Of a stretch of 64,000 bases of DNA, positions 1,484-60,487 are shown one piece after another (the stretch's first letter is position 1; every line of letters starts with the position of its first letter). The translations under genes and the position numbers were made by a program. The stretch comes from an uncultured Actinomycetota bacterium (GTDB lineage Bacteria; Actinomycetota; Actinomycetes; CAVWCF01), in NCBI GenBank assembly GCA_963753435.1, contig CAVWCF010000001.1:704554-768553 (forward strand), in the 5' to 3' direction. The notes below the pieces were generated by a model. That model was not told where the DNA came from. It did not search any database and saw only the letters and a program-made list of their open reading frames with translations.

Positions 1484-1540
1484 CCCTTGAGAATGGCACA
1501 GTCGAGCACGGCGCGAGCCGCGCACGCGCGGGGAGGTGTG

Positions 1541-5833: not shown

Positions 5834-5931
5834 AGCCCAGACCCGAGTCCACAGCGGCCCACATGGGCTGATTCGCCTCATTGTTACTGGCCGGTAATAT
5901 CAGCGCCTAGTATTCGGTCGAGGAGGCCCAA

Positions 5932-7269: not shown

Positions 7270-7274
7270 CCTAC

Positions 7275-8018: not shown

Positions 8019-8791
8019 GGCTGCACCGTAGGGGTCAACTCCTGTGTCAGGTCGCTGAAGGACCAGGCTGGGCCGTCCCACGTGCTCGGCAGCGGCGCGG
8101 CCGCGTCCGGCCCAAGTACGCGGCTGACGATGTGGTCCAAGGCGATGCGGACGAACGGTTCGCCGACCCACAAGTGCTTGGCACCATCCACGCCGACTAC
8201 TTCCGCTTGCCGTACCGCCGCGAAGCGAGCGGTTGCCTCGGCTGGACGCAGGTAGTCGTCCAACTCCGGGATCAACGCCAACAACGGAGTTCCCGCCGCG
8301 TCCCAGCGCGCCAGGTGCTCATCGGTACTGAACCGCAACGGCGGCGACAGCAGAATCGCTCCGGCTATCGCCGGATCCAGGCCGTGCATCAACGCCAGGT
8401 CGGTACCGAAGGACCAACCGAGCAGCCACGGCTGCGGCAGGTGCTCGAACTCGGCGAACTCGATCGCAGCGGCAACGTCGTACCGCTCACCGACCGCTGC
8501 CTCGAACTGCCCTTGGGAAGTGCCGTGCGCAGACGTAGTCCCGCGGGTGTTGAACCGCAGCACCGCGATCCCGGCCAGGGCGGGAAGTCGCCAGGCCGCC
8601 TTGCGCAGGAGGTGGCTGTCCATCATCCCGCCATGCGTCGGCAACGGGTGCAGGCAGACCAACGTGGCCGCCGGCTCGGAGTCCGGCGGCAACGCCAACT
8701 CCCCCACCAGCTCCAGGCCGTCGGCGGTGTGCAGCGTGACCGGGCGGCGACGAGCCGGCAGGACGGTGTTGGCGCGGATCTGGACGGTCAC
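8015..8791 (-). CDS. Alpha/beta-hydrolase fold protein.
   Basis: LVCLHPLPTHGG and GWSFGTDLAL (GxSxG). Start chosen as the GTG overlapping (GTGA) the stop of the small upstream ORF. The track ORF extends to 8875. Confidence 0.55.
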   Translation of the reverse strand: MTVQIRANTVLPARRRPVTLHTADGLELVGELALPPDSEPAATLVCLHPLPTHGGMMDSHLLRKAAWRLPALAGIAVLRFNTRGTTSAHGTSQGQFEAAVGERYDVAAAIEFAEFEHLPQPWLLGWSFGTDLALMHGLDPAIAGAILLSPPLRFSTDEHLARWDAAGTPLLALIPELDDYLRPAEATARFAAVRQAEVVGVDGAKHLWVGEPFVRIALDHIVSRVLGPDAAAPLPSTWDGPAWSFSDLTQELTPTVQP

Positions 8792-9051
8792 GACAGCGGG
8801 CGCCGCCGCTCGCGCGCCTGCCAGCAGGCCTTGTGCCAGTGGCGTCGGTGACCACTGCCCAGATGCTCGGGCCAAACGACCAGGTGCGGAGTGGCGGTCG
8901 GGATCTCCAGGTCACAGCCGGGGCAGCGGTACGGCTTGGTGGACGAGGAACCGCGGATCGGCCGGACCACGTAGTCCTCGCCGTCGAAGGTCTCGATGCG
9001 CTCGGGCGCCGGTCCTGAGCCGCCGCGCGCAGCAGGACGCCGCTTGCTCAC
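8788..9051 (-). CDS. Small conserved hypothetical protein with a putative zinc-ribbon (CxxC...H...C).
   Basis: 87 aa, basic. Has YRCPGCD and a later HRRHWHKAC. Start codon overlaps (ATGA) the stop of the upstream dehydrogenase gene. Confidence 0.45.
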   Translation of the reverse strand: MSKRRPAARGGSGPAPERIETFDGEDYVVRPIRGSSSTKPYRCPGCDLEIPTATPHLVVWPEHLGSGHRRHWHKACWQARERRRPLS

Positions 9052-10826
9052 GGTGTGTTGTAGACCCGGAACCCGCGCCCGGCCTTGCGACCGAGATATC
9101 CGGCCGTGACCAGGTGCTCCAGAAGCGGTGCGGGTGCGAACCCGGGCTCGCGGAACTCCCGGTACAACTGCATCTGGATGGCCAGCGCCACATCCAGGCC
9201 GACGACGTCGAGCAACTCGAACGGCCCCATCGGGTAGCCGGTGCCCACCTTCATGGCGGTGTCGATGTCGTCAGCGCTGGCGTAGTGCGCCTCCAACATC
9301 TTCACCGCGTCGTTCAGGTACGGGAACAAGAGCGTGTTGACGATGAAGCCGGAGCGGTCACCGCACTGCACCGGGGTCTTGCCCAGCCGGCGCACCAACG
9401 CCGTTCCAGTTGCCAAGGCCTCCGGTCCGGAATGCACCGTGGCCACCACCTCGACCAGGTCCATCGCCTGGGCCGGGTTGAAGAAGTGCAGTCCGACCAC
9501 GTCGGCCGGCCGTTTGGTCGCCGCCGCCATCTCGATGACCGGCAGGCTGGACGTGGTCGTTGCCAGCACCGCCCCGGGCTTGCAGATCTCATCGAACGTC
9601 TCGAACAGGGTCTGCTTGACCGACAACTCTTCGACGGCCGCCTCAATGACCACATCGACATCCGCGAGGTCGTCGAGGCGATGCGATCCGACGATTCGAT
9701 CCAGCAACGGATCCCGCTCGTCGGCGGCCAACTTGCCCCGTAGTACGGCCTTGTCCACCGAACGCTCGATCTCGGCTCGTACGGCCGCCACCTTCTCCTC
9801 GCCACGAGTGACGTAAAGAACGTCCACGCCGGAGCGTGCCAGCGCCTCGATGATCCCCTTGGCCATGGTCCCCGAACCGGCGACACCGACACGCTGCACC
9901 GGCCGTCCGGTCACCTCGCCGTCCGGCCGCGGGGTTGCCGCGTCGTCAACGACTACCGGCGAGTCAGCGCTCTCGTAGGTGTAGAAACCGCGACCGGTCT
10001 TGCGGCCGAGCAGGCCCGCAGTCACCAGTTGCTTGAGGATCGGCGCCGGTGCGTGCAGCCGGTCCCGGGTCTGGCGGTACATCGTGTCGAGGATCTCGTA
10101 GGCGGTGTCCAGGCCGACCAGGTCGAGCAGGGCCAACGGCCCCATTGGGTAGCCGGCTCCGAGCCGCATGGCGGCGTCGATGTCCTCGCGCGTGGCGTAG
10201 CGAGTCTCGTACAGGCGGACCGCGTGGTTGAGGTATCCGAACAGGAGGGCGTTGGCGATGAAGCCCGCCTTGTCACCGACGACCACCGGCTGCTTGCCCA
10301 GCCGCGCGGCCAGCCCCTTGACGTCCTCGACTACCTCGGGGTCGGTGACGACGGTCCGCACCACCTCGACAAGCTTGAGTACGGGTGCCGGGTTGAAGAA
10401 GTGCATCCCGACCAGCAGCGCCGGCCGCGTCGTCGCCACCGAGATCTCCGTCACCGACAGCGAGGAGGTGTTGGTAGCCAGAATGGCGTCCGGACGCACG
10501 ATCTTGTCCACCCGGCCAAGCAGGTCCTGTTTGAGGTCCAGGTGTTCCGGAACCGCCTCGATGACCAGATCCGCCTCGGCCAGGTCGTCCATGGATGTCG
10601 TGAACCGGATGCGGTCGAAAATGGCCTTCTGCTCGTTGTCGGTGAGCTTGCCGCGCTTGACCGCGCGCCCGGTGGAAGCGGCCAGGTGTCCCCGGCCCCG
10701 CTCGATCCCGGACTCCTCGCCCTCCACGCCGATGACGTCGAAGCCGTTACGGGCAAACACCTCGGCGATGCCCGCACCCATGGTGCCGAGACCGATAACG
10801 CCGATAGTGCGGAAGTCGCGGGCCAT
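9048..10826 (-). CDS. Tandem-domain 3-hydroxyacyl-CoA dehydrogenase (two complete 3-hydroxybutyryl-CoA dehydrogenase-like modules in one polypeptide).
   Basis: Two NAD-binding Rossmann motifs (IGVIGLGTMGAGIAEV and VGVAGSGTMAKGIIEA). Two paralogous C-terminal segments (HFFNPAPVLKLVEVV...GYPMGPLALLDLVGLD and HFFNPAQAMDLVEVV...GYPMGPFELLDVVGLD). Start set at MARDF. The track ORF extends to 10853. Confidence 0.8.
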   Translation of the reverse strand: MARDFRTIGVIGLGTMGAGIAEVFARNGFDVIGVEGEESGIERGRGHLAASTGRAVKRGKLTDNEQKAIFDRIRFTTSMDDLAEADLVIEAVPEHLDLKQDLLGRVDKIVRPDAILATNTSSLSVTEISVATTRPALLVGMHFFNPAPVLKLVEVVRTVVTDPEVVEDVKGLAARLGKQPVVVGDKAGFIANALLFGYLNHAVRLYETRYATREDIDAAMRLGAGYPMGPLALLDLVGLDTAYEILDTMYRQTRDRLHAPAPILKQLVTAGLLGRKTGRGFYTYESADSPVVVDDAATPRPDGEVTGRPVQRVGVAGSGTMAKGIIEALARSGVDVLYVTRGEEKVAAVRAEIERSVDKAVLRGKLAADERDPLLDRIVGSHRLDDLADVDVVIEAAVEELSVKQTLFETFDEICKPGAVLATTTSSLPVIEMAAATKRPADVVGLHFFNPAQAMDLVEVVATVHSGPEALATGTALVRRLGKTPVQCGDRSGFIVNTLLFPYLNDAVKMLEAHYASADDIDTAMKVGTGYPMGPFELLDVVGLDVALAIQMQLYREFREPGFAPAPLLEHLVTAGYLGRKAGRGFRVYNTP

Positions 10827-10862
10827 GTTGCTCCTCAGGTGTCGAACCGGCATTCTCCCAGA

Positions 10863-12323
10863 TCAATCGGTCAGCAGATCGGCGGCCCGTTCGGCCACGG
10901 CGAGCACCGCCGCGTTGGTGTTGGCGCTTACCGGAGCCGGGAAGACCGACGCGTCGACCACATGCAGGCCGGCCGTGCCCGGGAGGGCCAGCCGACCGTC
11001 AAGGACGCTGCCGGCCGCCACCGTTCCGGTCGGATGAAACAGGGTCGATGCCCGGGCCCGCACATGCGCGCGCCAGTCCGGTTCGGGGTCGGCCGGGGGC
11101 CGGACGCGGCGCGCCAGCAGCCGCCGCAACGGCTCGGCTGCACCGATCTGGGCCGCCAGTTGCGCCCCGCCGACAAGTGCATCCGTGTCGGCGTCCGCAC
11201 CGAGGTAGTTCGGGTCGATCAGCGGCGGGTCGCCCGGCCGTGGACCACTCGCCCGGACCCACCCGCGGCTGGTCGGTCGCAACAACACCGCGGCGATCGT
11301 GAACCGCGCGGCACCGGGGTAGCCACCCACGTCACCGACGAAGGCGGCCGGGCCGGCGTGCAGTTGCAGATCGGGTTCGACATTCAATCCGGTCGCCGCG
11401 AAGGCGAACGCCTCGGCGTTGCCGCTGACCAGCGGACCGTCGCCGCGCTCGGACCACCGGCGCAGCGCTAGTTCGGAACTGCCCTCGTGCAGGCCCGGGG
11501 TCGCCTGACCGATCCAGAGCAAGGGAACGGCCAGGTGATCGGCGAGGCCCGCGCCGACAGCAGCGTCCACCAGCACTCGGACGCCGATGCGCTCGAGGTG
11601 CTCGACCGGGCCGATTCCCGAACGCTGCAGCAGTACTGGCGAGCCGACCGCGCCCGCGCACACGATCACGCGCCCTGCCGGCACCGCGGTGCCGTCGGCC
11701 AGTTCCACTCCGACCGCCCGCTGGCCGCGGAACAGCACTCGACTGACCACAGCCGAGCGCACCTGGAGGTTGTCCCGCGACATGGCCGGTCGCAGGTAGG
11801 CGCTGGCCGCCGAATGCCGCACACCCAGGCGTTGCGTCACCTCGAAGACACCGGAGTCGGCCAGTCCAGCTATCCGGGACGCCTGGACGAAGGCGGTGGA
11901 CAACTCGTGGGCGTACCGCAACGGCTCCGGGGCCATCACCTCTTCGGCGCGGCGCAGCGCGGGCAGGAGATCGGCCGCACCCCAGCCCAGGAGACCGTGC
12001 TCATCACGCCACTGGTCGAAGTCGGCTGGACGTGGGCGCACCCACAACGTGGCGTTGATGGCCGACGACCCACCCAGGGCGCGGCCGCGCGGCCACCGCA
12101 CCGTGCGCCCACCCAGGCCCGCTTGGGGCTGAGTCACATCGCCCCAGTCGTGCGCCGACCCGATCAGGCGCACCAGACGGGCCGGGATCTCGAAGTCCGC
12201 GCCGAGGTCCGGCTCCCCCGCTTCCAGTAAGAGAACGCGGTGATCACGGGCCTGGGACAGGCGGGCCGCCAGCACGCATCCGGCACTGCCGCCGCCGACG
12301 ATGACAGTGTCCACGACCGGCAC
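10863..12323 (-). CDS. GMC-family FAD-dependent oxidoreductase (choline dehydrogenase-like).
   Basis: N-terminal [22 protein letters not shown]-binding motif. 486 aa. GMC C-terminal pattern. Confidence 0.8.
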
Positions 12324-12361
12324 GGGCCGCGACGCTACCGCTGCGGCTACCGTCGGCGCCC

Positions 12362-13033
12362 ATGCGCCTGGTCATCGCCCGCTGCCGGGTCGACTACGTG
12401 GGTCGCCTGACCGCCCACCTGCCGCTGGCCACACGCCTGCTGCTGATCAAGGCGGACGGCTCGGTGTCCATCCACGCCGATGACCGCGCCTACAAGCCGT
12501 TGAACTGGATGAGCCCGCCATGTGAACTCGAGGAGGGCGCCGGGGCCGACGGCCTGCTTTGGACGGTCACCAATCGCGGCGGCGAGCGCCTACTGATCGG
12601 CATCGAGGAGATCCTGCTCGACTCCAGCCACGAACTCGGCGTCGAACCCGGACTCAGCAAGGACGGCGTCGAGGCGCAGTTGCAGTCGCTGCTGGCCGAG
12701 CAACTGAACACGCTGGGCGACGACTGGTCGCTGATCCGTCGGGAGTACCCGACCGCGATCGGCCCAGTCGATCTGCTGTGCCGAGACGCGGATGGGGTGA
12801 CAGTCGCGGTCGAGGTGAAGCGCCGCGGCGACATGGACGGCGTCGAGCAGCTGACCCGGTATCTCGACCTGCTCAACCGCGACGAGTTGCTGGCCCCGGT
12901 GCGCGGGGTGTTCGCCGCTCAGGAGATCCGCCCGCAGGCCCGGACCCTGGCGCTGGACCGGGGCATCGAGTGCGTCGTGGTCGACTACGAGGCGCTGAAA
13001 GGGACGGACGACCCGGAGTCGCGGCTCTTCTGA
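12362..13033 (+). CDS. nucS: Endonuclease NucS (EndoMS), a mismatch-specific nuclease.
   Basis: [21 protein letters not shown]...KADGSVSIH...EVKRRG. 223 aa, the typical actinobacterial NucS size and N-terminus. Confidence 0.85.
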
Positions 13034-13040
13034 CGCTAAC

Positions 13041-13904
13041 GTGCTTTGTGTGGAGCCGGCGATCACAGCGACGGATGTCCGGAAGCGGTACGGCGATACC
13101 CAGGCCCTCGACGGCGTCGACCTGCGCGTGGAACATCAGGAGTGCGTCGCTGTCCTCGGTCCCAACGGAGCCGGCAAGACCACGGCGGTGGAGATATTCG
13201 AGGGGTACCGCAACCGCGACTCCGGTGCTGTGACGGTCCTAGGCGCGGACCCGGCGTCCGCCGACCAGTCCTGGCGCCGACGCATCGGCATCGTGCTGCA
13301 GTCGGCCACCGACCTGGGAGATCTGACGGTGGCGGAGACGGTTCACCACTTCGCCACGTACTACCCCAATCCCCGCAACCCGGACGAGGTGATTGACCTG
13401 GTGGGGTTGTCGGCAAAGCGAGACGCTCGCGGCCGGTTGCTCTCCGGGGGCCAGCGGCGGCGCCTGGACGTGGCGCTGGGCATCATCGGCCGACCGGAAT
13501 TGCTCTTCCTCGACGAACCGACGACCGGCTTCGACCCGGAGGCACGACGGGATTTCTGGGCGCTGATCGCCCAGCTTCGCGCCGCCGGCACAACGATCCT
13601 GCTCACGACGCACTACCTGGAGGAGGCCGAAGCGCTCGCCGACCGGGTCGTGGTGATCGCGAACGGTCAGGTTCGCGCGGAGGGGCCGCCGGCGACCCTT
13701 GGCGGTCGCAGCAACGGCAAGGCCGAAGTTTCATGGGCCGAAGCGGGCCAGCTGCGCACGGAGGCAACCGACGATCCGACCAAGGTCGTCCTGGACCTGG
13801 CGGCCCGGTTCGGTGGACCGATCCCGGAGTTGACGGTGCGTCGGCCGACGCTTGAGGACACCTACCTGGCACTTGTGGGCCAGGAGAACGAGCCGGCGTC
13901 ATGA
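13041..13904 (+). CDS. ABC transporter ATP-binding protein.
   Basis: Walker A GPNGAGKTT, ABC signature LSGGQRRRL, Walker B LLFLDEPTTGFD. The true start may be the TTG/GTG a few codons into the ORF. Confidence 0.8.
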   Translation: MLCVEPAITATDVRKRYGDTQALDGVDLRVEHQECVAVLGPNGAGKTTAVEIFEGYRNRDSGAVTVLGADPASADQSWRRRIGIVLQSATDLGDLTVAETVHHFATYYPNPRNPDEVIDLVGLSAKRDARGRLLSGGQRRRLDVALGIIGRPELLFLDEPTTGFDPEARRDFWALIAQLRAAGTTILLTTHYLEEAEALADRVVVIANGQVRAEGPPATLGGRSNGKAEVSWAEAGQLRTEATDDPTKVVLDLAARFGGPIPELTVRRPTLEDTYLALVGQENEPAS

Positions 13905-14716
13905 GCGTTACGGAAGCGAGCCCACCATCAGCCTGGAGTCTCGGGCGGCGCCGTGCCGGCATCGAGTTGAAGCAGTTCTTCCGCGACCGCGAGTCGGCAC
14001 TGTTCAACTTCGCACTGCCCATGCTGCTGCTGGTCGTCTTCGGTTCCGCGTTCGATGCGGAGATCGAGCCTGGTGTGACCTTCAGCCAGTACTTCCTGGC
14101 CGGCATGATCGCCAGCGGCCTCGTCTACAGCGGCTTTCAGAACCTCGCCATCTCGATTCCCCTGGAGCGCGACGACGGAACCCTCAAGCGGCTGCGCGGC
14201 ACCCCGATGCCGTCCGCCTCGTACTTCATCGGCAAGACCATCGTGGTGCTCATTTCGGTCACGGCGCAGATAACACTGCTGCTCGCCATCGGCGTCCTGC
14301 TCTTCGACGTGACGATGCCGGACACCGCGCAGAAATGGTTCACGTTGCTCTGGGTGAGCCTGCTGGGCGTGGTCGTCTGCTCACTGCTCGGAATCGCCTA
14401 CTCAGCCATACCTCGCAACGGGCGCAGTGCGTCCGCGCTGGTGACGCCGGTCGTGCTGGTGTTGCAGTTCACGTCCGGCGTCTTCTTCGTGTTCAGCCAG
14501 TTGCCTTCGTGGATGCAGCAATTCGCGTCCCTGTTCCCGCTGAAGTGGCTGTGCCAGGGCATGCGGTCGGTGTTCCTGCCGGAGTCGTTCGCCGCCGTCG
14601 AACCGGCTGGCTCGTGGGAACTGCCCATGGTGGCGCTGGTGCTTGTCGCGTGGTCGATCGGGGCAGCCGTGCTGGCCCGCCTGGCGTTTCGGTGGACCCG
14701 CAGCGATGCTGACTGA
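13901..14716 (+). CDS. ABC-2 type transporter permease.
   Basis: 271-aa polytopic membrane protein. Overlaps the stop of the ATPase gene by 4 bp. ABC-2 exporter topology. Confidence 0.7.
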   Translation: MSVTEASPPSAWSLGRRRAGIELKQFFRDRESALFNFALPMLLLVVFGSAFDAEIEPGVTFSQYFLAGMIASGLVYSGFQNLAISIPLERDDGTLKRLRGTPMPSASYFIGKTIVVLISVTAQITLLLAIGVLLFDVTMPDTAQKWFTLLWVSLLGVVVCSLLGIAYSAIPRNGRSASALVTPVVLVLQFTSGVFFVFSQLPSWMQQFASLFPLKWLCQGMRSVFLPESFAAVEPAGSWELPMVALVLVAWSIGAAVLARLAFRWTRSDAD

Positions 14717-14739
14717 CTACGGATCGGAGGAGGAGAAAG

Positions 14740-15051
14740 ATGAACGACCAGCGCCAGCAGTGGGACGAGTACGTGGACCGGGCCAGTGACGTACTGAGCG
14801 GCTTGATCGCCGACGCCCAGCGCACCTTGGAGGACGGCCGCAAGAGTCTCGGCGAGTACCAGGCCCGCCGCCAAACGGAGCGTTTGCTCGCTCGACTCGG
14901 CGCCGCCGTTTACGCCGCCGAACGATCTGGCGGGCCCGCCGCGGCCGTGGCTGAAGCGATGTCCGCCGTCGACGAGCACGTGGCAGCGCACGGGTCCGCG
15001 GACCTGCCGCCTGCCGATGTCGACCGGGCCGGCAGCGAGGCGAACGATTAG
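14740..15051 (+). CDS. Hypothetical protein.
   Basis: 103-aa acidic helical ORF with an RBS-like GGAGGAG upstream. Convergent with ecm and overlaps its stop by 4 bp. No recognisable motif. Confidence 0.35.
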   Translation: MNDQRQQWDEYVDRASDVLSGLIADAQRTLEDGRKSLGEYQARRQTERLLARLGAAVYAAERSGGPAAAVAEAMSAVDEHVAAHGSADLPPADVDRAGSEAND

Positions 15052-17018
15052 CCGTCTGCCAACCCCCGGGCCCGGCGGATGGCGCCGACCACCTGCGTCA
15101 GGTCCTCGGTCAGGTCGAAGTCCTTCGGGGTGAACACCGCAGCCACCCCGCCAGCGACCAGGACAGCAGCGTCGGCAGCCGGGATGATCCCGCCGACGAC
15201 CACGGGCACGTCGGTCAGCCCTGCCTCCCGCAGCCCGGCCACCACCGCGGGCACCAGGTCCAGGTGCGAACCGGACAGCACCGACAGGCCCACGCAGTGG
15301 ACGTCGTCGGCGACCGCCGAGGCGACGATCTGCTCCGGGGTGAGTCGGATGCCCGCGTAGACGACCTCGAAACCCGCGTCGCGGGCGCGCACCGCAACCT
15401 GTTCGGCGCCGTTGCTGTGGCCGTCCAAGCCGGGCTTGGCCACCAGGATCCGCAATCGAGTCCCTAGCTGGGCTCCGGTGCTCTGCACCAGTTCGCGCAG
15501 CTGGGCCAACCCGGCCGAAGGCGTAGTCGGAGCATCGGCTACCCCCGTGGGCGCGCGGTACTCGCCGAAGACCTCGCGCAGCGCACCCGCCCACTCCCCG
15601 GTTGTCACACCGGCACGGGCGCACTGCATGGTGGCCGGCATCAACGACTCGGTACCAGCGGCGGCAGCGGTCAAGGCCGCCAAAGCCTCCTTGACCGCCA
15701 CCGGATCCCGTTGCTCACGCCAACGCTGCAGCGCTGCCACGGCTTCAGCTTCCGCGGCGGGGTCGACGCTGAGGATCGCCGCGCCACTGGCGGTCAACGG
15801 GCTGGGCTCGGTCTCCACGAACGAGTTGACGCCGATGACCTTCTGCTCACCGGACTCGATGCGGCCGCGACGCTGGGCGTGCGAGCTCACCAACTGCGCC
15901 TTCAGATAGCCGTCGGCGACGGCGGCCACTACGCCGCCACGAGCGTCGATCTGCTCCAGCTCCGCTCTGGCGGCATCGAGGAGTTCGGTGACTTTGCTTT
16001 CGACGACCGGAGAGCCGGTGAACAGGTCGGGGTATTCCAGCAAGTCGGACTCGTATGCGAGTACCTGCTGCATTCGCAGCGACCACTGCTGGTCCCATGG
16101 TCGTGGCAGGCCGAGGGCCTCGTTCCAAGCGGGCAACTGGATGGCTCGGGCCCGGGCGTCCCGACTCAAGGTCACGCCCAGCATCTCCAGCATGATGCGA
16201 GCGACGTTGTTTTCCGGCTGCTCCTCCGTGAGGCCCAGCGAATTGACCTGCACTCCATACCGGAAGCGACGCTGGTCTGGGTTCTCGATGCCGTAGCGGT
16301 CGCGGGTGATCTCCTCCCAGAGGAGACCGAACGCGCGCATCTTGCACATCTCCTCCACGAAGCGAACTCCGGCGTTCACGAAGAAAGACATGCGACCGAC
16401 AACGTCACCGAATCGCTCCGGTGGCACCTGCCCGCTGTCCCGCACCGCGTCCAGCACGGCGATCGCAGTCGCCATCGAGAACGCCAACTCCTGCACGGGA
16501 GTGGCCCCGGCCTCCTGCAGGTGATACGAGCAGATGTTGATCGGGTTCCACTTCGGCATCGTCGCCACCGAATGCGCGATGAGGTCTGCAGACAACCGCA
16601 GGCTGACCTCCGGCCCGAAGACGTAGGTGCCGCGACTCAAGTACTCCTTGATGATGTCGTTCTGCGTAGTACCGGACAGGGCTGCGATCTCGACGCCGGT
16701 CTCGGCGGCCACCGCCTCGTACAGCGCCAGTAGCCACATCGCGGTGGCGTTGATCGTCATCGAGGTGTTCATCCGGTCCAGGGGCAACCCGTCGAACAGC
16801 GCGCGCATGTCCCCCAAGTGCGCGATCGGCACACCCACGCGGCCAACTTCCCCACGCGCCCGGGGGTCGTCAGGGTCGTAGCCGGTCTGGGTGGGCAGGT
16901 CGAACGCGACCGAAAGCCCGGTCTGGCCCTTGGCCATGTTGGTGTGGAAAAGGGCGTTGGAGGCCTGCGCCGACGTGTGTCCGGCGTAGGTCCGCATGAC
17001 CCAGGGCCGATCCGGCAT
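15048..17018 (-). CDS. ecm: Ethylmalonyl-CoA mutase (MeaA/Ecm), a B12-dependent fused mutase with a C-terminal cobalamin-binding domain.
   Basis: MPDRPWVMRTYAGHTSAQASNALFHTNMAKGQTGLSVAFDLPTQTGYDPDDP...NPINICSYHLQEAGATPVQELAFSMA is a MeaA-type N-terminus. C-terminal B12-binding motifs GLDGHSNGAEQVAVRARDAGFEVVY and VVVGGIIP. 656 aa. Confidence 0.8.
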   Translation of the reverse strand: MPDRPWVMRTYAGHTSAQASNALFHTNMAKGQTGLSVAFDLPTQTGYDPDDPRARGEVGRVGVPIAHLGDMRALFDGLPLDRMNTSMTINATAMWLLALYEAVAAETGVEIAALSGTTQNDIIKEYLSRGTYVFGPEVSLRLSADLIAHSVATMPKWNPINICSYHLQEAGATPVQELAFSMATAIAVLDAVRDSGQVPPERFGDVVGRMSFFVNAGVRFVEEMCKMRAFGLLWEEITRDRYGIENPDQRRFRYGVQVNSLGLTEEQPENNVARIMLEMLGVTLSRDARARAIQLPAWNEALGLPRPWDQQWSLRMQQVLAYESDLLEYPDLFTGSPVVESKVTELLDAARAELEQIDARGGVVAAVADGYLKAQLVSSHAQRRGRIESGEQKVIGVNSFVETEPSPLTASGAAILSVDPAAEAEAVAALQRWREQRDPVAVKEALAALTAAAAGTESLMPATMQCARAGVTTGEWAGALREVFGEYRAPTGVADAPTTPSAGLAQLRELVQSTGAQLGTRLRILVAKPGLDGHSNGAEQVAVRARDAGFEVVYAGIRLTPEQIVASAVADDVHCVGLSVLSGSHLDLVPAVVAGLREAGLTDVPVVVGGIIPAADAAVLVAGGVAAVFTPKDFDLTEDLTQVVGAIRRARGLADG

Positions 17019-17082
17019 CCGCTCCTCCTTAAGGAACGGCCCAACCCTACTCGCCAGTAACCTCGACCGAGCAGGCGGAATG

Positions 17083-17403
17083 TCAGCCGACGCTGCGCGT
17101 AGCCCGATCCAGGTGCAGCACTCGGTGCAGCCGAGTTACGGCGAGCAGCCGCAGGACGTTGGGCTGGGGGTCGGACAGCACCAACCGGCGGCCAGCCTGT
17201 CGACAACGCCGGTGTGTGCCCACCAGCAACGCCAAACCCGCCGAGTCCAGCACCTGGACACCGGAGCAATCAAGGATCAGATCGCCGGATCCAGCGGCCA
17301 CGGCGATCTCCAACTCGTAGCGCACGGCGCCGATGGTGGCGGCGTCTACACGATGCGGCAGGGTCAAGCGAACCTCGACGCCCGAGGAATGGGATTCCAC
17401 AGC
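17083..17403 (-). CDS. STAS-domain protein (anti-sigma factor antagonist, SpoIIAA-like).
   Basis: GDLILDCSGVQVLDSAGLALLVGTHRRCRQAGRRLVLSDPQPNVLRLLAVTRL is the STAS pattern. Start set at the internal GTG (VESHSSGVEV). The track ORF runs 17083..17538. Confidence 0.5.
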   Translation of the reverse strand, partial: AVESHSSGVEVRLTLPHRVDAATIGAVRYELEIAVAAGSGDLILDCSGVQVLDSAGLALLVGTHRRCRQAGRRLVLSDPQPNVLRLLAVTRLHRVLHLDRATRSVG

Positions 17404-33782: not shown

Positions 33783-33885
33783 TGAAAGCTCCTAGTCGGG
33801 CACCGGGTCGTCTTCCGGGGTGGAGGACGTGAACCGGAGCACCGGCATTCTGCCACCAGGCCTTGGTCCTGGCGAAATCGCGTTC

Positions 33886-35124
33886 TCAGGCCGAGATGAG
33901 CTCGGATCGCACCGCCGGGGCGGTGCGGGTGCCCCACCGGTTGTCCGTGAGCGATCCCAGCGCCCGTAGCCGGACGGGGATGAGCAGGGCCGCGTGCAGG
34001 AAGCCGTACAGGACGAAGAAGAAGAACTTCGGGTTGCGGGTTCGGTACAGGGCGTAAAGGCAGTGCAGCACCGCCATGATCGCGATGACCGTGAAGTAGA
34101 GGACGAGCACCTCGGGCCCGTAGAGGAAGGCCCGCACAATCGTGGCTGTGACGGCGATGGTGAGCAGCAGCGGCAGGAGGGCCTGAATGAAGACCTCGGT
34201 CGCCATCACTCGGGAAAGCCGAGGCAGGAACGACAGGGTCCACAGCAGCTCGCGGTAGTAGGACTTGTTCCAGCGCAACTGCTGGGTCAAGTAGCTGCGA
34301 ATGTTCGTTGGCGCGCTGGTGATGCAGTGCGCCTGCGGCACGAAGACCGTGCGGAAGCCTTCACCAAGCACCAGGTTCGTCAGATGTCGATCATCGCCGA
34401 ACGTGCACGGAACTCCGCGGAAGGTCTGGCTGACATACCGGGGCCAGACCCGACCCAGCACGTCGCGCCGGTACACGGAGAACGGACCGGAACAGCAGAG
34501 CACCGCGCCGAACAAGGAGTGGGCGGCCCGCTCCTGGTTGAACGCGACCCAGTAGCGCATGTCGATGAGCAGGGTGAGCAGGTTCGTCCGTGCGTTGGAA
34601 ACGCGGACATCGCCGGTGACCGCGCCAACGCGGGCATCGGCGAACGGCTCAATGATCGTCCGGACCCCGTCCGGAGCGATCTGGGTGTCCGAGTCGATGG
34701 TCATGATCAGGTCGCCGCAGACGTGCGGCAGCGCAGCGCTTTGGGCGTGGCGCTTGCCCCGATTCACGTCCGGCAGGTGGATCGTCCAGCCCGGCCGAGC
34801 CGAGTACTCGCTAAGCAGCGGTATCAGGTCCTCGCGGTTCGGTGACAGGTCATCGACCACGTGCACCTCGATCACGCCCGGGTAGTCCTGTGCCAGCAAG
34901 GACTCAAAGCACAGCCGCAAGTCATCCGGGTGCTCGTTGTAGACGGGGATGATGACCGATACGACGGGCCAGGATCCGTGCCACTTCGGCCGTTGCAGCG
35001 TTCGCCGCCAGGATCGGTGCGCCATGCCGACCTGCAGGACGAAGTGCGACACCACCAACACGGTGTAGACGATCAACAGGCCGTCGAGGAAGTTCTTGAC
35101 CACGGTGGCCAGTAGGCCGCTCAC
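33886..35124 (-). CDS. Processive family-2 glycosyltransferase (hyaluronan synthase / NodC / chitin synthase-like) with N- and C-terminal TM segments.
   Basis: VSVIIPVYNE, DxD-type motifs (VVDDLS, IDSDT), QxxRW processivity motif (QQLRWNKS). Flanking TM helices. 412 aa. Stop overlaps the start region of the upstream membrane protein. Confidence 0.75.
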   Translation of the reverse strand: MSGLLATVVKNFLDGLLIVYTVLVVSHFVLQVGMAHRSWRRTLQRPKWHGSWPVVSVIIPVYNEHPDDLRLCFESLLAQDYPGVIEVHVVDDLSPNREDLIPLLSEYSARPGWTIHLPDVNRGKRHAQSAALPHVCGDLIMTIDSDTQIAPDGVRTIIEPFADARVGAVTGDVRVSNARTNLLTLLIDMRYWVAFNQERAAHSLFGAVLCCSGPFSVYRRDVLGRVWPRYVSQTFRGVPCTFGDDRHLTNLVLGEGFRTVFVPQAHCITSAPTNIRSYLTQQLRWNKSYYRELLWTLSFLPRLSRVMATEVFIQALLPLLLTIAVTATIVRAFLYGPEVLVLYFTVIAIMAVLHCLYALYRTRNPKFFFFVLYGFLHAALLIPVRLRALGSLTDNRWGTRTAPAVRSELISA

Positions 35125-36794
35125 GACGCGATCCCTGAGGCGCTAATCAGATCCCGCGCTCGCTGCAGCAGCGCTTCCTGCGGATCGGTATCACCGACGA
35201 CAACGCTGGTGCCAATAACCCGACCACCAACGCTCAGTGGGCCCGATTGCGAACTCGCCATCAGCACCACGCGCTCGTGTCGGATCACGTCGCCGTTTCG
35301 GAACGGCCACTCCCAGGAGAGGACGTGCCACGTGCTGCCGCTAGGAGTACGGAACTCGTAACGCTGGCCGGCGACCCCGCCCAGATCCAACTCCTCGTCG
35401 GCGAGCACCTCGTTGTCATGGAACTGGTAGCAGGACGCCAGCGAGTGTGTCTGCAGTGCCCGTAGGGAATCGGTTGTGATCGAGTCCATCCAGATCGTCG
35501 GTGTCGAGGCGGCTGTCGCGCCTACGCCCACCTGCGGCCGGAACTCATACCGCATCCAGCGCGAGTCCCCGCCGAAGTAGGCGCGTGCCCATTCCTCTTC
35601 ACCAAGAGGTGTCACGGACTCCGCGGTGGCCGACATCCGCTGCACTTGTTCGGCGGCGCTGACGGTGACCGGACCACCCGCGGCGGCACTGCCGCGCATC
35701 TGGCCGACGGTGGCGATGTTCACGGCCATGATCAAGGCAGCACCGGTTCCCAGCGCTAGGAGCCGCAGGACGAGTTGGCGCCGGTCCGGTGCCCCATCTC
35801 GCGGTAGCTGCGTGAAGAGGGGGTTGTCGCCGAACCCGGCCTCTCGGATGGGCCGCCGAACCAGCCCCATCGGGCCGGCCAAAGCGAGCATGAGCAGGAA
35901 GGCCGCGTTCAGGGCCAGCAACCCGGCGACCGGGTGCACCAACCCGATCGCGGCATCCTCACCGACAGCTCGACCGATCACCAGGATCGCGACGATTCGG
36001 ACAACGTTGGCCATGAAGACGACCAACAGGCCCAGTGCGAACCAGGTGAGCCGGGCCCGGCCGGTGCCACGCAGAACGCTGAAGGATGCGGTGGCCACGA
36101 CCGCGAAGGCCGCCATGCCCCCCATCCCCGAGCAGGCGCTGGAAACGACGACATCGAAGGCGCCATCCGGGGCAGGCACCGTGAGCCGCAGGTCACCCTC
36201 CGCGGGCACCGGTGTGGCGATCGGGAAGACGTCCAGAACGCCGCGCACGGCCACGCCGGTTGCATTGGTCAACCCGGTGCTGACCAGTTCCAGCAGCGCC
36301 GCGTAGGGGACGGGCCAGGCCAAGGCGAGCACGGCGATGGACGGGGCGAAAGCGAGCAGTGACCGCACCCCGAACAGGAGCGTGAAGGCCGCAACTGCGG
36401 TGAACGGCAGCAACAGCAGGTCGAAGCGCAGCACGGCGAAGAAGTTGCCGGTGCCATGCCAGGACAGCAGCAAGCCGCCGGAAACCAGCAGGGCGCACAC
36501 GGCGGCCACGTACCAGTCCGCCTTGCCGTGGCGGGCGGTGGAGACGAAGGGGTGGCGGCGAATGGCCACAACGCTCAGCCCCACCGCGATCAACGGAACG
36601 ATGGCCAGTTCCGCCAGGGGCGACTGGTACTGCCACGAAGCCAGCATCGTCGCGAATGAAGCCGCGCCGGCCGCGGCCACGGCCACCCAGGCGAGCAGCA
36701 GGCGCAAGTGCGCCGGGATCAGGTGGGTCGCGGGCGGGTGCAGACTCAGCCCCGATCGCGGAGGCGTGATCGTGACGTCACGCATCACTGACAC
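35121..36794 (-). CDS. Exosortase/archaeosortase-like polytopic membrane protein fused to a C-terminal TM segment and an extracytoplasmic domain of about 200 aa (EpsI-like arrangement).
   Basis: About 8 N-terminal TM helices. Conserved-looking Cys in VVSSACSGMGGM, and an Asn/Arg pair in FMANVVRIVAI; both recall the exosortase signature. An extra TM (LVLRLLALGTGAALIMAVNIATV) precedes a soluble C-terminal domain. 557 aa. Assignment is from motif recognition only. Confidence 0.55.
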   Translation of the reverse strand: MSVMRDVTITPPRSGLSLHPPATHLIPAHLRLLLAWVAVAAAGAASFATMLASWQYQSPLAELAIVPLIAVGLSVVAIRRHPFVSTARHGKADWYVAAVCALLVSGGLLLSWHGTGNFFAVLRFDLLLLPFTAVAAFTLLFGVRSLLAFAPSIAVLALAWPVPYAALLELVSTGLTNATGVAVRGVLDVFPIATPVPAEGDLRLTVPAPDGAFDVVVSSACSGMGGMAAFAVVATASFSVLRGTGRARLTWFALGLLVVFMANVVRIVAILVIGRAVGEDAAIGLVHPVAGLLALNAAFLLMLALAGPMGLVRRPIREAGFGDNPLFTQLPRDGAPDRRQLVLRLLALGTGAALIMAVNIATVGQMRGSAAAGGPVTVSAAEQVQRMSATAESVTPLGEEEWARAYFGGDSRWMRYEFRPQVGVGATAASTPTIWMDSITTDSLRALQTHSLASCYQFHDNEVLADEELDLGGVAGQRYEFRTPSGSTWHVLSWEWPFRNGDVIRHERVVLMASSQSGPLSVGGRVIGTSVVVGDTDPQEALLQRARDLISASGIAS

Positions 36795-36855
36795 CTCCGC
36801 AGGCCGCTACTCCGATCGGATGAATCTTCGGCTCCTGAGGCACCTGACTTGACTG

Positions 36856-37356
36856 TCAGATGGCTGATTGCGAACCGACTGCCCCGCGGCGCCGCAGCCC
36901 GAACCAGGCCGCGGCGGTGAGCAGCATCGAGGCGGGCAGCAGGATCGCGATCGGGGCTTCCGGAAGCTGCGCTGGCGGAGCACACGACGAGACGGTCACC
37001 CGGCCCGAGGTGTTGCTTGTGGCTGAGGTCACATCGTCTGCCCGGACCCGCCACGCCTTGGCGTCCTTGTGTGCGGACACGTTCAATGCGTAGGCGTAGT
37101 CGGTAACCCCGGGCACGGTGGTGACCAGCTGCTGGACCGAGGTGTCCGACCAGCCGGAGTCCTGCCGCTGCAACGTAAGCACGATCTGCGACCCGGACGG
37201 GAAGTTACGCAGCGAGATGGTCCCGCTCAGGGAGTCACCCGCACAGCTTGCGCCCACGGAACGGACCTCTTTGGGTGCCGCCCAGGCGCTTGCCGGCGCG
37301 AACAGGGCGAGCGCAGCGACGATGCCAGCCAGGGCCAACGTGAACGCACGTCGCAT
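36856..37356 (-). CDS. Small secreted protein with a PEP-CTERM-like C-terminal sorting signal (putative exosortase substrate).
   Basis: Sec signal MRRAFTLALAGIVAALALFAPASAWA|APKEV. Mature part has 2 Cys and a Ser/Thr-rich stretch. C-terminus is LPEAP-IAILLPASMLLTAAAWFGL-RRRG: motif, hydrophobic helix, basic cluster. The track ORF starts 9 codons earlier, at 37383. Confidence 0.5.
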   Translation of the reverse strand: MRRAFTLALAGIVAALALFAPASAWAAPKEVRSVGASCAGDSLSGTISLRNFPSGSQIVLTLQRQDSGWSDTSVQQLVTTVPGVTDYAYALNVSAHKDAKAWRVRADDVTSATSNTSGRVTVSSCAPPAQLPEAPIAILLPASMLLTAAAWFGLRRRGAVGSQSAI

Positions 37357-37438
37357 CCGCGGCACCTCCAAAACCTGTCGCAACTCTCTGCAGTTGTCGG
37401 CGCGACGGCTGCGGGGCTTGAGCGCTTAGGGCGGCGAA

Positions 37439-37493: not shown

Positions 37494-39266
37494 TTACTCC
37501 TCGTCACCGTTCATTCCCGGCGTGGTCTGGGCCACGCTCATCAGGAACTGACGGTTGGTGGGTGCCTCGCGCAGCTTGTTCAGCAGCAACTCAATGGCCT
37601 GCTGTGTCTCCAGTGCATGCAGCACGCGCCGCAGTTTCCAGGTGACCTTCAACTCGTCGGAGCCCATGAGGAGCTCTTCCTTGCGGGTGCCGGAGGAGTC
37701 CACATCCACGGCCGGGAAGATGCGCTTGTCGGCCAGCCGCCGGTCCAGCTTGAGCTCCATGTTTCCGGTGCCCTTGAACTCCTCGAAGATGACCTCGTCC
37801 ATCTTTGACCCGGTCTCCACCAGCGCGGTGGCCAGCACCGTTAGGGAGCCACCGTTCTCGATGTTGCGGGCCGCACCGAAGAAGCGCTTGGGCGGGTACA
37901 GGGCGCTGGAGTCGACGCCACCGGACAGGATTCGCCCGGACGCGGGTGCCGACAGGTTGTAGGCCCGCCCCAGGCGGGTCATGGAGTCCAAAAGAACTAC
38001 GACGTCGTGGCCCATCTCGACCAGCCGCTTGGCGCGTTCGATCGCCAACTCGGCAACCGTGGTGTGGTCATCGGCAGGACGGTCGAAGGTCGAGGAGATG
38101 ACCTCACCCTTGACGGTGCGCTGCATGTCGGTGACTTCTTCGGGACGCTCGTCCACGAGGACCACCATCAGGTGGACCTCCGGGTTGTTCTCGGTGATCG
38201 CGTTGGCGATGGACTGCAGCACCATCGTCTTGCCGGCCTTCGGGGGCGAGACGATCAGGCCGCGCTGACCCTTGCCGATCGGCGCCACGAGGTCGATGAC
38301 TCGAGTGGTCAAGTCGCTGCTGGCCGTCTCCAACCGCAGCCGTTCGTTCGGGTACAGCGGCGTCAACTTGCTGAAGTCAACTCGGTCCCGGACCCCGTCC
38401 GGGGCCAGGCCGTTGACCGTGTCCACCCGGACGAGCGGGTTGAACTTCTCGCGGCGCTCACCCTCGCGCGGCTGTCGCACGGCCCCGGTGAGCGCATCGC
38501 CCTTGCGCAGCCCCATGCGGCGCACGAGGCCCATCGGGACATAGCAGTCGTCCGGGCCCGGCAGGTAGCCGCTGGTACGCAGGAATCCGTAGTTCTCCCG
38601 GATGTCGAGGATGCCGGCGACGGGCACCAGCACGTCGTCCTCGCCCAGAACTGGCTCATCGTCGCGACCTCGGCGGGCGCCCCGATCGCGGTCGCGGTCT
38701 CGGTCCCGACCCCGGTCGCGGTCACGGCCACGACGGCGCCGGCGGTTACCGCGGTCGTCATCACGGGGGCCGCGGGAGTCGTCGTCGCGGGGGCCACGGG
38801 AGTCGTCGTCGCGGTCACGACCACGGTCCCGGTCGCCACGGTCGGACTGGTTGCGGTCTGACTGGTTGCGGTCGGACTGGTTGCGGTCGGACTGGTTGCG
38901 GTCGCGGCCGGACTGCTGGCGGCCGGATTGCCCGTCGTTTCCAGCCTCGCGCTCACGTCCGCGCGGCCGGCTGGCCGCAGTCGACGGCTCATCGCCGGCA
39001 GGGGCGGACTCGCTGCTGCGGGAGTCGGTGCGGGCGGAGTCACGGCGTCCGGACTCGCTGCGCCCTGATTCGCTGCGCGCGGACTCGCTGCGACCAGAGT
39101 CCCGGCTGCCGCCGGCCTCGATGGCCGCAATCAGGTCGCCCTTGCGGAGCCGCTTGGCGCCAGCGATCCCCAGACCGCTGGCCATCTCCTGCAACTCGGG
39201 CAACTTCTTGCTGGACAGAGAGCCGCCGGACTTCGATCCGCGGGTCTCAGTATTGGTGTCGCTCAC
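37494..39266 (-). CDS. rho: Transcription termination factor Rho with an actinobacterial Arg/Asp/Ser-rich N-terminal insertion.
   Basis: N-terminal [11 protein letters not shown]...[30 protein letters not shown]. Long RD/RG/SE low-complexity region. C-terminal RecA-like core with P-loop [13 protein letters not shown]. 590 aa. Confidence 0.9.
38831..38890 (-). repeat. Four tandem copies of a 15-bp unit (gtcggactggttgcg) inside rho, encoding RNQSD repeats. A second 15-bp-period repeat lies at about 39048..39092.
   Basis: Direct reading of the sequence. Copies are perfect except for one mismatch. Confidence 0.6.
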
Positions 39267-39427: not shown

Positions 39428-40325
39428 TCAGGCGTCCTCGACAACCGCCCCGCGTGCCGGGGAAAGCACCCGCGCCGCGACCCCTTCCGGTGCCGTTGCG
39501 GCAATCGCGTCCAACTCGCCGGCGGCAGTGCTCAGCACCAGCACAGTGGGGCCGGCCCCGGAGATGAACGCAGCATGCCCGGCCGATCGCAATCTCTGCA
39601 CCAGCACCATCGATTCGGGGTACGCGCCGGTACGAGCGTCCTGGTGCAACCGGTCGGCAGTGGCCGCGAAGAGCAGACCAGGTTTGGCGGTCATGGCGAT
39701 CGGCAGGAGAGCGGCCCGGGCCGCGTTGGCAGTGGCGGTCTCGAACGGGACCGCCGCGGGAAGCAGCGCACGCGCGACTTCGGTGGAAACCTCCACCGCT
39801 GGGATCAGCGCAAGCGCGCGGATCTGCTCGTGCACCGGCAAGGAAATCGCCTCGCTTGCGCCGGCCTCGGACCACGCCAGGGTGAATCCGCCGAGAAGGC
39901 AGGCGGCCACGTTGTCCGGATGACCCTCCAACTCCGCCGCCAGCGGGAGAGCCGATTCCGGGGAGGTGTCCGCACCGGCCAAGTGCCGGGCCAGCAGGAC
40001 GCCGCAGGTGATGGCCGCGGCGGAAGACCCGAGACCACGTCCGTGCGGGATCCGGTTGGTGGCCCGAAGCCGTAGGCCGGGGACGGCAAAGCCCAAATCC
40101 GCCGCTGTCCGTTGCAGGGTGGCCACAACCAGATGCCGATCGTCCAACGGCACGGTGTCGGCGCCCTCGCCGACGACTCTCCACGTCAATCTGGTCCGCG
40201 ATGACTTCGACCGCCACCTCGTCGACGAGGTCCAGCGCCAGTCCGGCTACGTCGAAACCCGGGCCCAGGTTCGCGCTGGTCGCCGGGGCGCGGACGACAG
40301 CGCGGGCGCCGATCGGCAGGTCCAC
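39428..40325 (-). CDS. thrB: Homoserine kinase, apparently frameshifted (N-terminal motif in one frame, remainder in another).
   Basis: The GTG at 40325 abuts the thrC stop and encodes VDLPIGARAVVRAPATSANLGPGFDVAGLALDLVDEVAVEVIADQIDVE. That frame then degenerates. The -1 frame continues LTWRVVGEGADTVPLDDRHLVV...IPHGRGLGSSAAA (GHMP motif 2) to 39428. Junction near 40195-40205. Confidence 0.65.
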
Positions 40326-40326
40326 C

Positions 40327-41397
40327 TCAGGCGAGGTCAAGCAGGCTGGCTGCCGCGGCAGCGTCGATGGGCACCGTTTCCGGCTGCGGCGCACCCGCGA
40401 TCGCCCACTCCGGGTCCTTCAACCCGTTGCCGGTGACCGTGCAGACGATGCGCTGCCCCGGCTCCACCAGGCCCTCGGCATGTGCCTGCAGCAACCCGGC
40501 AACGCTGGCCGCGCTGGCTGGCTCAACGAACACGCCTTCGGTGCGAGCCAAGAGCCGATAGGCGGACAAGATCGCCCGGTCGGTGACAGCGTCAATTCGC
40601 CCGCCCGACTCGTCGCGCGCAGCTTCGGCCTGCTGCCACGAGGCCGGGTTGCCGATGCGGATGGCCGTGGCGATGGTCGACGGCTTGGCGACCGGCTCCC
40701 CGCGCACGATCGGCGCCGCACCAGCCGCCTGGAAACCCCACATCCGCGGGCGCGCGGAGATGCCGTCGTTGGCGTATTCGCAGTACCCCTTCCAGTACGC
40801 GGTGATGTTGCCGGCGTTACCGACCGGCAGGACGTGGATGTCCGGCGCCTGGCCCAACCCGTCGACGATCTCGAACGCGGCGGTCTTCTGGCCCTCGATG
40901 CGATCCGGGTTCACCGAGTTGACCAGCGCGACCGGATAGTTCTCCGACAGGTCGCGCGCCAAGGTGAGGCAGTCGTCGAAGTTGCCGTCCACCTGCAGCA
41001 GGCGTGCGCCGTGCGCCAACGCCTGCGACATCTTGCCGAGTGCGATCTTGCCTTGCGGGACCAGAACGGCGCAGACCATTCCCGCCCGCACGGCGTAAGC
41101 GGCCGCGGACGCCGAAGTGTTGCCCGTCGAAGCGCAGATGACGGCCTGGGCCCCCGCTTGTGCAGCCTTGGAGATGGCCATAGTCATGCCGCGGTCCTTG
41201 AACGAACCGGTGGGGTTGGCCCCCTCTACCTTCAGGTGGACCTCGCACCCGGTGCGCTCAGACAGGACCTGGGCCGGCACCAGCGGGGTGCCGCCTTCAC
41301 GCAACGTGATGACGGGCGTGTCCGCGGTCACCGGCAACCGATCCCGGTACTCCTCGATGACACCTCGCCACAGGTGCCTGGTCATTGTCGTGGTCAT
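40327..41397 (-). CDS. thrC: Threonine synthase.
   Basis: [22 protein letters not shown]-lysine motif. 356 aa. Confidence 0.9.
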
Positions 41398-41401: not shown

Positions 41402-42691
41402 TCACTCCCCCACTACTCGCATGACGGATGCGATCGCCCGCACCACATCCAGGTCGGCCAACGCCGCCACCGTGGCCGCCAGTTCACCCTCGGTGGCCTC
41501 GTGGGTGACGACCAGCAGGCTGGCGTCGTCACCGTGCCCGTCCTGCCGCAGCGTCTCGATCGACACTGCGTGCTCGGCAAAGACCTCCGCAACCCGGGCC
41601 AGGACACCGGTCTTGTCGGCCACGTCCAGGTGCATGTAGTACCTGGTGCGGGCCCCGGCCACGTCGAGAACAGGCAGGTCCGCGTAGGCGGTGACGGCCG
41701 GCTCGCGGCCGCCCGAAAGCCGGTTCCGAGCCACCGCCACCACGTCCCCCAGGACGGCTGACGCGGTCGGTGCGCCACCTGCGCCACGGCCGTAGAACAT
41801 CAACTGCCCGGCGGCGTCGGACTCCACGAAGACCGCGTTGTAGGCCTCTCGCACGCTTGCCAACGGGTGCGTCCGCGGAACCATCGCCGGGTGTACGCGG
41901 ACATAGACCCCGCCGCCGTCGGGGCTGCGCTCACAGATCGCCAGCAGTTTGACCACGTAACCCATGCTGCGGGCGGTAGCAACCACGTCGGCGGACACGT
42001 CGACGATCCCCGTGACGGAAACGTCCCCCAGCGCCACTCCGGTGTGGAAGGCGAGCCCGGCGATGATCGCGGCCTTGGCAGCGGCATCCGCGCCACCCAC
42101 GTCGGCGGTCGGGTCGGCTTCGGCGTAGCCGAGCGCCTGGGCCTCGGCGAGCGCGTCGGCGAACGAGGCGCCGGTCTCATCCATTCGGGTCAGGATGTAG
42201 TTGGTGGTGCCGTTGACGATGCCGAGGACGCGCTGCACCCGGTCGCCAACAAGGGATTCACGCAAGGGCCGTAGCAGCGGGATCGCACCGGCAACGGCGG
42301 CCTCGTAGTAGATGTCGACCCCGTGCTCGTCGGCCGCTTCGTAGAGAGTCGCACCGTCCTCAGCCAGCAGCGCCTTGTTGGCACTGACGACGGCGGCGCC
42401 GTGGCTCATGGCCGATAGCAGCAGTGACCGCGCGGGCTCAATACCGCCCATGACCTCGATCACAATGTCGATGTCCGGCCTGGACACCAACCCGGCCAGA
42501 TCAGTTGTGTAGAGGGAAGGGTCCACCTCGAAGCCGCGCTCGGCGTCGAGGCGCCGCACCCCGATCCCGGCAAGGCGAAGCGGGGCTCCGGCGCGCGCAC
42601 CGAGGTCGTCGGCGGCGCTGAGCAGGCCGCGAGCGACCTCGGCCCCGACCGTCCCGGCGCCGAGCAAAGCGACGTTCAGCGGCTGAGTCAT
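41402..42691 (-). CDS. hom: Homoserine dehydrogenase.
   Basis: [19 protein letters not shown] Rossmann motif, a C-terminal ACT-like region. 429 aa. Confidence 0.9.
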
Positions 42692-46393: not shown

Positions 46394-46466
46394 GCCCCCG
46401 TAGCTCAGGGGATAGAGCATCGGCCTCCGGAGCCGTGTGCGCAGGTTCGAATCCTGCCGGGGGCGC
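46394..46466 (+). tRNA. tRNA-Arg (anticodon CCG).
   Basis: Cloverleaf read by eye: acceptor GCCCCCG/CGGGGGC, D-arm GCTC-AGGGGATA-GAGC, anticodon arm tcggc-CTCCGGA-gccgt (anticodon CCG), T-arm GCAGG-TTCGAAT-CCTGC, discriminator G. Coordinates +/-1. Confidence 0.75.
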
Positions 46467-46475
46467 CCATCGGGG

Positions 46476-59980: not shown

Positions 59981-60487
59981 ATGCTCGACCGGCTAAGGCG
60001 GCTCTTCGGCCGCAAGTCCACCAAGACGCGACCCGCGCCGGCGGCTTCGCCAACGCGTGGCCGCGCAGTCGTTGGCGAGGCTCCGCCCTATGGCGGGGCA
60101 CGCGACCACGTCGGCGGAGCGCGGATCTCCTACCGACCCGACCGCGACGGCGAGCCCGACCCTGGTGAGGTCGTTTGGTGCTGGGTGCCGTTCGAGGACG
60201 ACCCGAGCCGGGGCAAGGACCGGCCGGTGATCGTGATGGGCCACGTGGAGTACTTCCCAGAGTTGCTGGTGGTCCAGTTATCCAGCCAGGAACGGCACCG
60301 GGGCGAAGCCGGCTGGGTCGGCATCGGCACCGGCCGCTGGGACTCCAAACGCCGGGACAGTTACGCCGACGTCAATCGGCCGCTGGCCGTGGCCATGACG
60401 GCGGTCCGCCGCGAGGGCGGCACCCTGCCTAGGGACCGGTTCGATGAGGTAGCCGCGGCACTGCGCGATCGCTACGGCTACCACTAG
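59981..60487 (+). CDS. PemK/MazF-fold family protein (toxin-like) with a long basic N-terminal extension.
   Basis: [26 protein letters not shown]...LLVVQLSSQ resembles the MazF/PemK N-terminal beta-barrel motif (GDIxxxDFDP..G.E..K.RPxVVVS). 168 aa. No adjacent antitoxin-like ORF. Confidence 0.35.

Follow-up and report, generated by a model that had tools for sequence, protein, structure and literature searches.

The question raised by this locus is whether thrB, a homoserine kinase gene that cannot be read in a single frame from the deposited DNA, is broken in the organism or only in its assembly. The window (the whole stretch of 64,000 nucleotides that was analysed, with a G+C content of 68.2%) carries thrB on the minus strand, behind two open reading frames that are intact: hom, encoding a homoserine dehydrogenase of 429 aa (41402..42691, minus strand), and thrC, encoding a threonine synthase of 356 aa (40327..41397, minus strand). 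The open reading frame of rho (37494-39266, minus strand) lies downstream. Five relative contigs from independent assemblies were used for comparison (Logan SRR25893897, JGI 3300032263, ENA ERZ27251119, JGI 3300038945 and ENA ERZ27251469) and are distinguished, where necessary, by the handles L081, L082, L084, L085 and L086; L082 is the Logan contig and encodes an intact ThrB of 298 aa (P0121). The orthologues of hom on L084 and L086 carry PF03447, PF00742 and PF01842, the orthologue of thrC on L081 and L086 carries PF00291, and the hom-thrC-thrB order of the window, that of a threonine operon, is also the order in L081, L084 and L086. The hom-thrC-thrB-rho arrangement here is ordinary.

thrB begins at the GTG at 40325, one base after the TGA stop codon of thrC (40329-40327), and the start proposed from the sequence alone therefore stands. 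The outer boundary then given for the gene, 40394, marks no more than the point inside thrC where the open upstream frame has its first start codon. We rejected the 355-aa ORF that runs from the GTG at 40394 as a gene product, since it is an open frame of high GC whose codon usage beyond 40177 is non-coding; the 'LTWR' formerly quoted as ThrB sequence is off-frame read-through of upstream sequence.

The gene is divided between two frames, and both pieces belong to the same family. The 5′ segment consists of the GTG start and codons 1-49 (VDLPIGARAVVRAPATSANLGPGFDVAGLALDLVDEVAVEVIADQIDVE; 40179..40325, minus strand) and matches positions 2-39 of the NCBIfam homoserine kinase profile TIGR00191 (E 1.5e-10). 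The 3′ segment comprises codons 50-298 and a TGA stop (39428..40177, minus strand), and the ORF containing it matches profile positions 47-269 (E 6.5e-50); its 169.7 bits are barely above the curated equivalog cut-off of 168.25 bits. When one base is removed, thrB becomes an 897-nt ORF of 298 codons whose product matches positions 3-269 of 304 in a single stretch with 217.5 bits. The joining of the two pieces into one match confirms a frameshifted thrB, far beyond chance, and the apparent frameshift described by the sequence-only reading is thus real in the sequence, codon usage also changing frame within the gene. The repaired protein aligns to the solved homoserine kinase 5wat_A (E 6e-63, residues 1-268 to 3-277) and its repaired junction, ...IDVEVVGEG..., is colinear with that structure across the break. 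A protein search returned three intact 298-aa ThrB relatives with 84-89% identity, and the closest named relatives, from Acidothermales, Nocardioidaceae and Streptosporangiales, are 56-63% identical.

All three motifs of the GHMP family are present, but the break separates the first from the other two. Motif I (PATSANLGPGFD, residues 14-25, 40251..40286, minus strand) is upstream of the break; motif II (PHGRGLGSSAAA, residues 93-104, 40013..40048, minus strand) and motif III (SGAGPT, residues 255-260, 39545..39562, minus strand) are downstream, all three being located by reading the sequence. The label "ATP-binding" first given to PATSANLGPGFD was imprecise: motif I belongs to the active site; it is motif II, GLGSSAA, that forms the phosphate-binding loop and here lies in the downstream frame, and a role has been described for motif III, GAGPT, as well (PMC4643977).

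The position of the break can be fixed to within a few bases, and several methods agree on it. In-frame homology extends as far as GAG (E49, 40181-40179) and restarts at GTC (V50, 40177-40175); in a tblastn comparison with a 57%-identical homologue, one HSP ends at 40179 and the next begins at 40177; third-position GC and a seven-state Viterbi segmentation of all six frames, using a codon-usage model trained on the long ORFs of the window, both switch frame at 40176/40177. Instead of an uninterrupted frame of about 300 codons, thrB thus has a change of frame after codon 49. Beyond that codon the 5′ frame is arginine-rich nonsense that stays open to 39327; the homoserine kinase continues in the +1 frame (VVGEGADTVPLDDRHLVV...GLGSSAAA...SGAGPTV...) as far as a stop at 39428. 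The earlier placement of the junction at 40195-40205 was about 20 nt off, and the gcggaccagattgacgtgg quoted for it occupies 40199-40181, ending just before the true break at 40178-40180. The downstream part had also been assigned to the -1 frame; in the reading direction it is +1. The DNA has one base too many, so a ribosome would need to skip one base (+1).

Alignment of both halves to ThrB, which had been recommended as a way to pinpoint the base, places the extra nucleotide within the minus-strand A-G-A at 40178..40180, inside GTGGAGAGTC, and its removal restores the 298-codon ORF. Positions 40674-38893 of the window align to L082 (a 1781-bp contig) with 99.44% identity over 1782 columns, with nine substitutions and one gap. 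That gap is the extra base: the window reads GACGTGGAGAGTCGTC and L082 reads GACGTGGA-AGTCGTC (GTGGA-AGTC). A single gap at this site identifies G40179 as the extra nucleotide against L082 and likewise against L085, both of which have a GAA codon; against L081, L086 and L084, which have GAG, it is A40178. The insertion therefore falls at a synonymous wobble position, where the window has GAGA. It extends no homopolymer, and it is the only gap in the six-sequence thrB alignment.

The repaired 897-nt gene aligns without gaps to all five relatives at 77-99% identity, with every frame continuous. The comparison rules out that the N-terminal motif is dispensable in this lineage, as all relatives keep the motif and the 147-nt 5′ segment is 100% identical in DNA to the intact sister L082. 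The broken allele has a single record among about 15 billion proteins: P0004, of 241 aa, is 100% identical to the downstream part of thrB, has NCBI and ENA as its sources and lies on a 1,700,501-bp contig. Evidently this record arose by automatic gene calling on the source genome itself. Its 90% cluster contains just P0004 and the intact P0121. A pattern covering both alleles, run over JGI metagenome contigs, matched only the intact contig already known, and a scan of genome contigs with the conserved ELEGHPDN pattern gave, among the matches listed, only relatives at 46-58% identity. The single-nucleotide insertion is private to this assembly.

One of the relatives has a lesion of its own in the neighbouring gene. 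In L084 (JGI 3300038945, Ga0399900_056772), a contig 85% identical to the window, thrC (1410-2480) contains an in-frame TAG and is called as two products of 291 and 54 aa, reading VFV*PASAA where the window, L081, L085 and L086 read VFVEPASAA. This is the second threonine-operon lesion among the six sampled clade contigs, and is either an error or a real nonsense allele.

thrB itself has no sign of decay other than the lesion. Seven of the nine substitutions relative to L082 fall in thrB, and the differences in thrC and rho are synonymous. Judged against four outgroups, a single non-synonymous change in thrB, A297D, arose on the side of the window, within a C-terminal tail that differs from relative to relative; on the side of the intact sister, A156T and I274M are clearly derived, and the direction of change at codon 296 (E/G) is ambiguous. 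Apart from the single lesion, then, we found in thrB no extra stops, no indels and no excess of derived non-synonymous changes, although the numbers are small. With no such decay, the lesion is very young if it is biological at all.

The rest of the window is in good order. In the codon-usage segmentation, thrB is the only mid-gene frame switch in 64 kb; at every other same-strand frame change there is a stop codon, with a start codon close by, as at ordinary gene boundaries. Among about 50 ORFs scanned against NCBIfam or Pfam, about 37 of which received a family assignment, no match was split or truncated. Profile coverage is near end-to-end for MeaB (1-299/300), thiolase (4-392/393), Ccr (2-398/398), NucS (1-224/224), MurA (2-416/419), GlyA (1-404/404), LysA (2-416/417), Era (1-291/291), DnaJ (3-378/378) and LepA (2-595/595), and PrfA, ArgS, HrcA, HolA, RsmE, YbeY and Sua5 are also complete. 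The clean frame scan and the complete family matches make thrB the sole visibly broken gene in the 64 kb and, as no further indel error is visible, the assembly appears otherwise accurate. No second thrB was found in the window by tblastn, and no protein-kinase-like (APH-type) homoserine kinase among the approximately 50 ORFs scanned with Pfam and NCBIfam.

Candidate frameshifts suggested by open frames that overlap on one strand, at 8.0-9.05, 45.8-46.9, 48.3-50.4 and 51.6-52.7 kb, were rejected, being normal adjacent genes or ORFs without a family match; the normal genes with complete domains at these places are RsmE, HIT, YbeY, Sua5 and STAS. The first of these regions (8018-9051, minus strand) contains two overlapping ORFs on the same strand with coding-like codon usage, one of 87 aa (8791-9051) and one of 286 aa (8018-8875), neither of which has a Pfam match. 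With an overlap of 87 nt and no homologue to test against, a frameshift joining the two is possible.

Other features of the window deserve brief description. An insert of some 200 aa in the N-terminal part of Rho is rich in Arg, Asp and Ser and contains short tandem repeats (SDRNQ four times, RDDDSRGP twice, and SESGR); within it the codon-usage model briefly loses the frame (38647-38772). Between rho and rpmE are three minus-strand ORFs (33889-37383), an unusual insertion into the conserved rho-rpmE-prfA neighbourhood: an ORF of 175 aa without a family match (36859-37383), an exosortase EpsH-like membrane protein (35124-36794, PF09721) and a NodC-like glycosyltransferase (33889-35124; TIGR04242, E 3e-103, below cut-off). 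In L081 and L086, an ORF of 166 aa and an EpsH gene follow rho in the same order. Rfam and ARAGORN gave only two matches in the window, an L31-Actinobacteria ribosomal-protein leader upstream of rpmE (33799-33845, minus strand; 44.1 bits) and a tRNA-Arg(CCG) (46394-46467, plus strand). An ORF with a PemK/MazF-like toxin domain (59981-60484, plus strand; PF02452, E 9e-12) lies between lepA and rpsT. The first part of the window (1-17135) is occupied by a cluster of ethylmalonyl-CoA/methylmalonyl-CoA-type genes, comprising a mutase that runs off the window (2-1744), MeaB (3175-4107), a thiolase (4111-5418), methylmalonyl-CoA epimerase (5153-5830), crotonyl-CoA carboxylase/reductase (5911-7266), a tandem double 3-hydroxyacyl-CoA dehydrogenase (9051-10853) and a second mutase (15051-17018).

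The sequence-only reading had offered three explanations for the frameshift: an indel in sequencing or assembly, a programmed frameshift and a pseudogene. The first is the one we favour; the second lacks both signals and conservation, and the third, recast as a recent null allele, seems to us doubtful though worth weighing. Recoding would require a ribosome, programmed or leaky, to stall on AGU after GAG and then read GUC to give full-length ThrB. The 0-frame AGU is rare (2.8 per 1000 codons, 5% of Ser codons) and the overlapping +1 GUC is among the commonest (43.7 per 1000), a combination that makes some spontaneous leakiness possible, though rarity of the A-site codon is not by itself enough for a recoding site. 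The yeast Ty3 +1 site is GCG-AGU-U, which GAG-AGU-C superficially resembles, and the bacterial prfB +1 site is CUU-UGA-C. A GGAG also lies directly upstream. However, no slippery site exists at the junction: a tRNA in the P site would find no pairing after a +1 move (GUG-GAG-AGU-C; GAG to AGA, GUG to UGG), and the 0 frame has no stop, running on through a further 283 codons to 39327. The GGAG shares bases with the P-site codon (spacing 0) rather than lying 3 nt upstream as in prfB, and is plain Val-Glu coding sequence that is present in the relatives too. The fold of the 97 nt of RNA downstream is no better than those of shuffled sequences (z = -0.47). Programmed frameshift sites are conserved and, decisively, the shift is absent from the 99.4%-identical relative and from all the other relatives. 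For want of a slippery site, a 0-frame stop, an unusual fold and conservation, we reject programmed frameshifting, and consider +1 decoding of either kind very unlikely. We attach even less weight to the notion that the two pieces form a split enzyme, or that the C-terminal ORF of 241-253 aa is an active kinase by itself. That ORF does just pass the TIGR00191 cut-off and has motifs II and III, but motif I and residues 1-49 would either be lacking or continue into some 300 out-of-frame residues, and the N-terminal segment is contiguous in all relatives, solved structures included, none of which is split.

The choice is consequently between an error and a young mutation, and we conclude that the extra base is probably a consensus error in the assembly and not a property of the organism. 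The lesion is private, the conserved core gene is otherwise undamaged and hom and thrC beside it are intact, a combination that favours error. Randomly placed errors hit conserved core genes, and genuine pseudogenes concentrate in accessory genes; in free-living bacteria it is rare for a core biosynthetic gene to be a real pseudogene. Real slippage mutations and 1-bp insertions mostly lengthen a homopolymer, unlike the insertion in thrB. We infer not only the artefact but also its origin in mixed strains and the sequencing technology. The source is probably an unannotated 1.7-Mb contig of a long-read metagenome assembly, as its length, its missing annotation and the distance of the nearest named ThrB relatives suggest. 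Reads of co-existing strains may have been collapsed into one consensus that kept the GAA and GAG alleles side by side and so gave the GAGA of the window; the organism would then make a normal 298-aa ThrB and would not be a threonine auxotroph. In consensus assemblies that collapse alleles, sequence variants between these are known to misalign reads and to produce indel errors (PMC8445201), and frameshift errors are common in long-read (nanopore) assemblies, where the typical consensus errors are of homopolymer length (PMC9262707). Given the five relatives, however, 20% of all possible one-base insertions in thrB would show the same tandem wobble-allele pattern, which makes the pattern only a modest pointer toward artefact. 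Against an artefact, the non-homopolymer context is atypical for a long-read consensus error, and the surrounding 64 kb is clean. The same two points recommend the alternative that the base, present as it is in the deposited sequence, is a genuine and very recent loss-of-function mutation, fixed in the strain or dominant in the population. Such a cell would make a 49-residue ThrB stub followed by out-of-frame sequence and no active homoserine kinase, and would need external threonine or a non-orthologous homoserine kinase elsewhere in its genome. The thrC nonsense codon of L084 hints that the operon may tolerate lesions in this clade, and homoserine kinases of a protein-kinase-like family, unrelated to the GHMP type, exist and could substitute (PMC1079889). 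Yet neither a second lesion nor an excess of derived non-synonymous changes accompanies the insertion, the adjoining hom and thrC are intact, the 99.4%-identical sister and the four other relatives have whole genes, no other record contains the broken allele, and neither a second thrB in the window nor an APH-type kinase among the scanned ORFs is there to replace it; as noted above, the lack of homopolymer extension is also unusual for a real insertion. We therefore regard a genuine null allele as possible but the weaker reading. It is improbable that the base is real and, together with the TAG in the thrC of L084, marks a repeated strain-level loss of threonine synthesis in an uncultured actinomycete lineage, with threonine supplied by the community and the loss perhaps eased by low-level +1 decoding at the rare AGU.

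One base is no ground for scoring the genome as threonine-auxotrophic or its thrB as recoded, and P0004, the truncated 241-aa "homoserine kinase" in protein collections, stems from the same thrB lesion. An extra base that proved real would amount to a young null allele of an ordinary kind, with a modest bearing on auxotrophy in uncultured actinomycetes. In that case the downstream ORF by itself would be without motif I, and threonine prototrophy would have to come from uptake or from a non-orthologous kinase (PMC1079889).

Comparison with known systems places the locus within familiar categories. The gene shares its model score, its motifs and its position after hom and thrC with the GHMP homoserine kinases ThrB (TIGR00191; 5WAT, 6CYZ, 1FWK). 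The ORF in the window is broken after codon 49 by the extra nucleotide, an interruption seen in no relative. With the programmed +1 sites of prfB and Ty3 it has in common the need for a +1 shift, a rare A-site AGU and a common +1 GUC; unlike them, it has no P-site codon that re-pairs, no 0-frame stop, no Shine-Dalgarno-like element at the right spacing, no unusual fold downstream and no conservation. The indel errors of collapsed and long-read assemblies are likewise single-base and private, and fall in an intact conserved gene at a strain-variable site, but they occur mostly in homopolymers, whereas the extra base of thrB does not, and it has no companion error in 64 kb. In kind, then, there is nothing new here: thrB is an ordinary GHMP-family homoserine kinase gene and its lesion is an ordinary single-base insertion.
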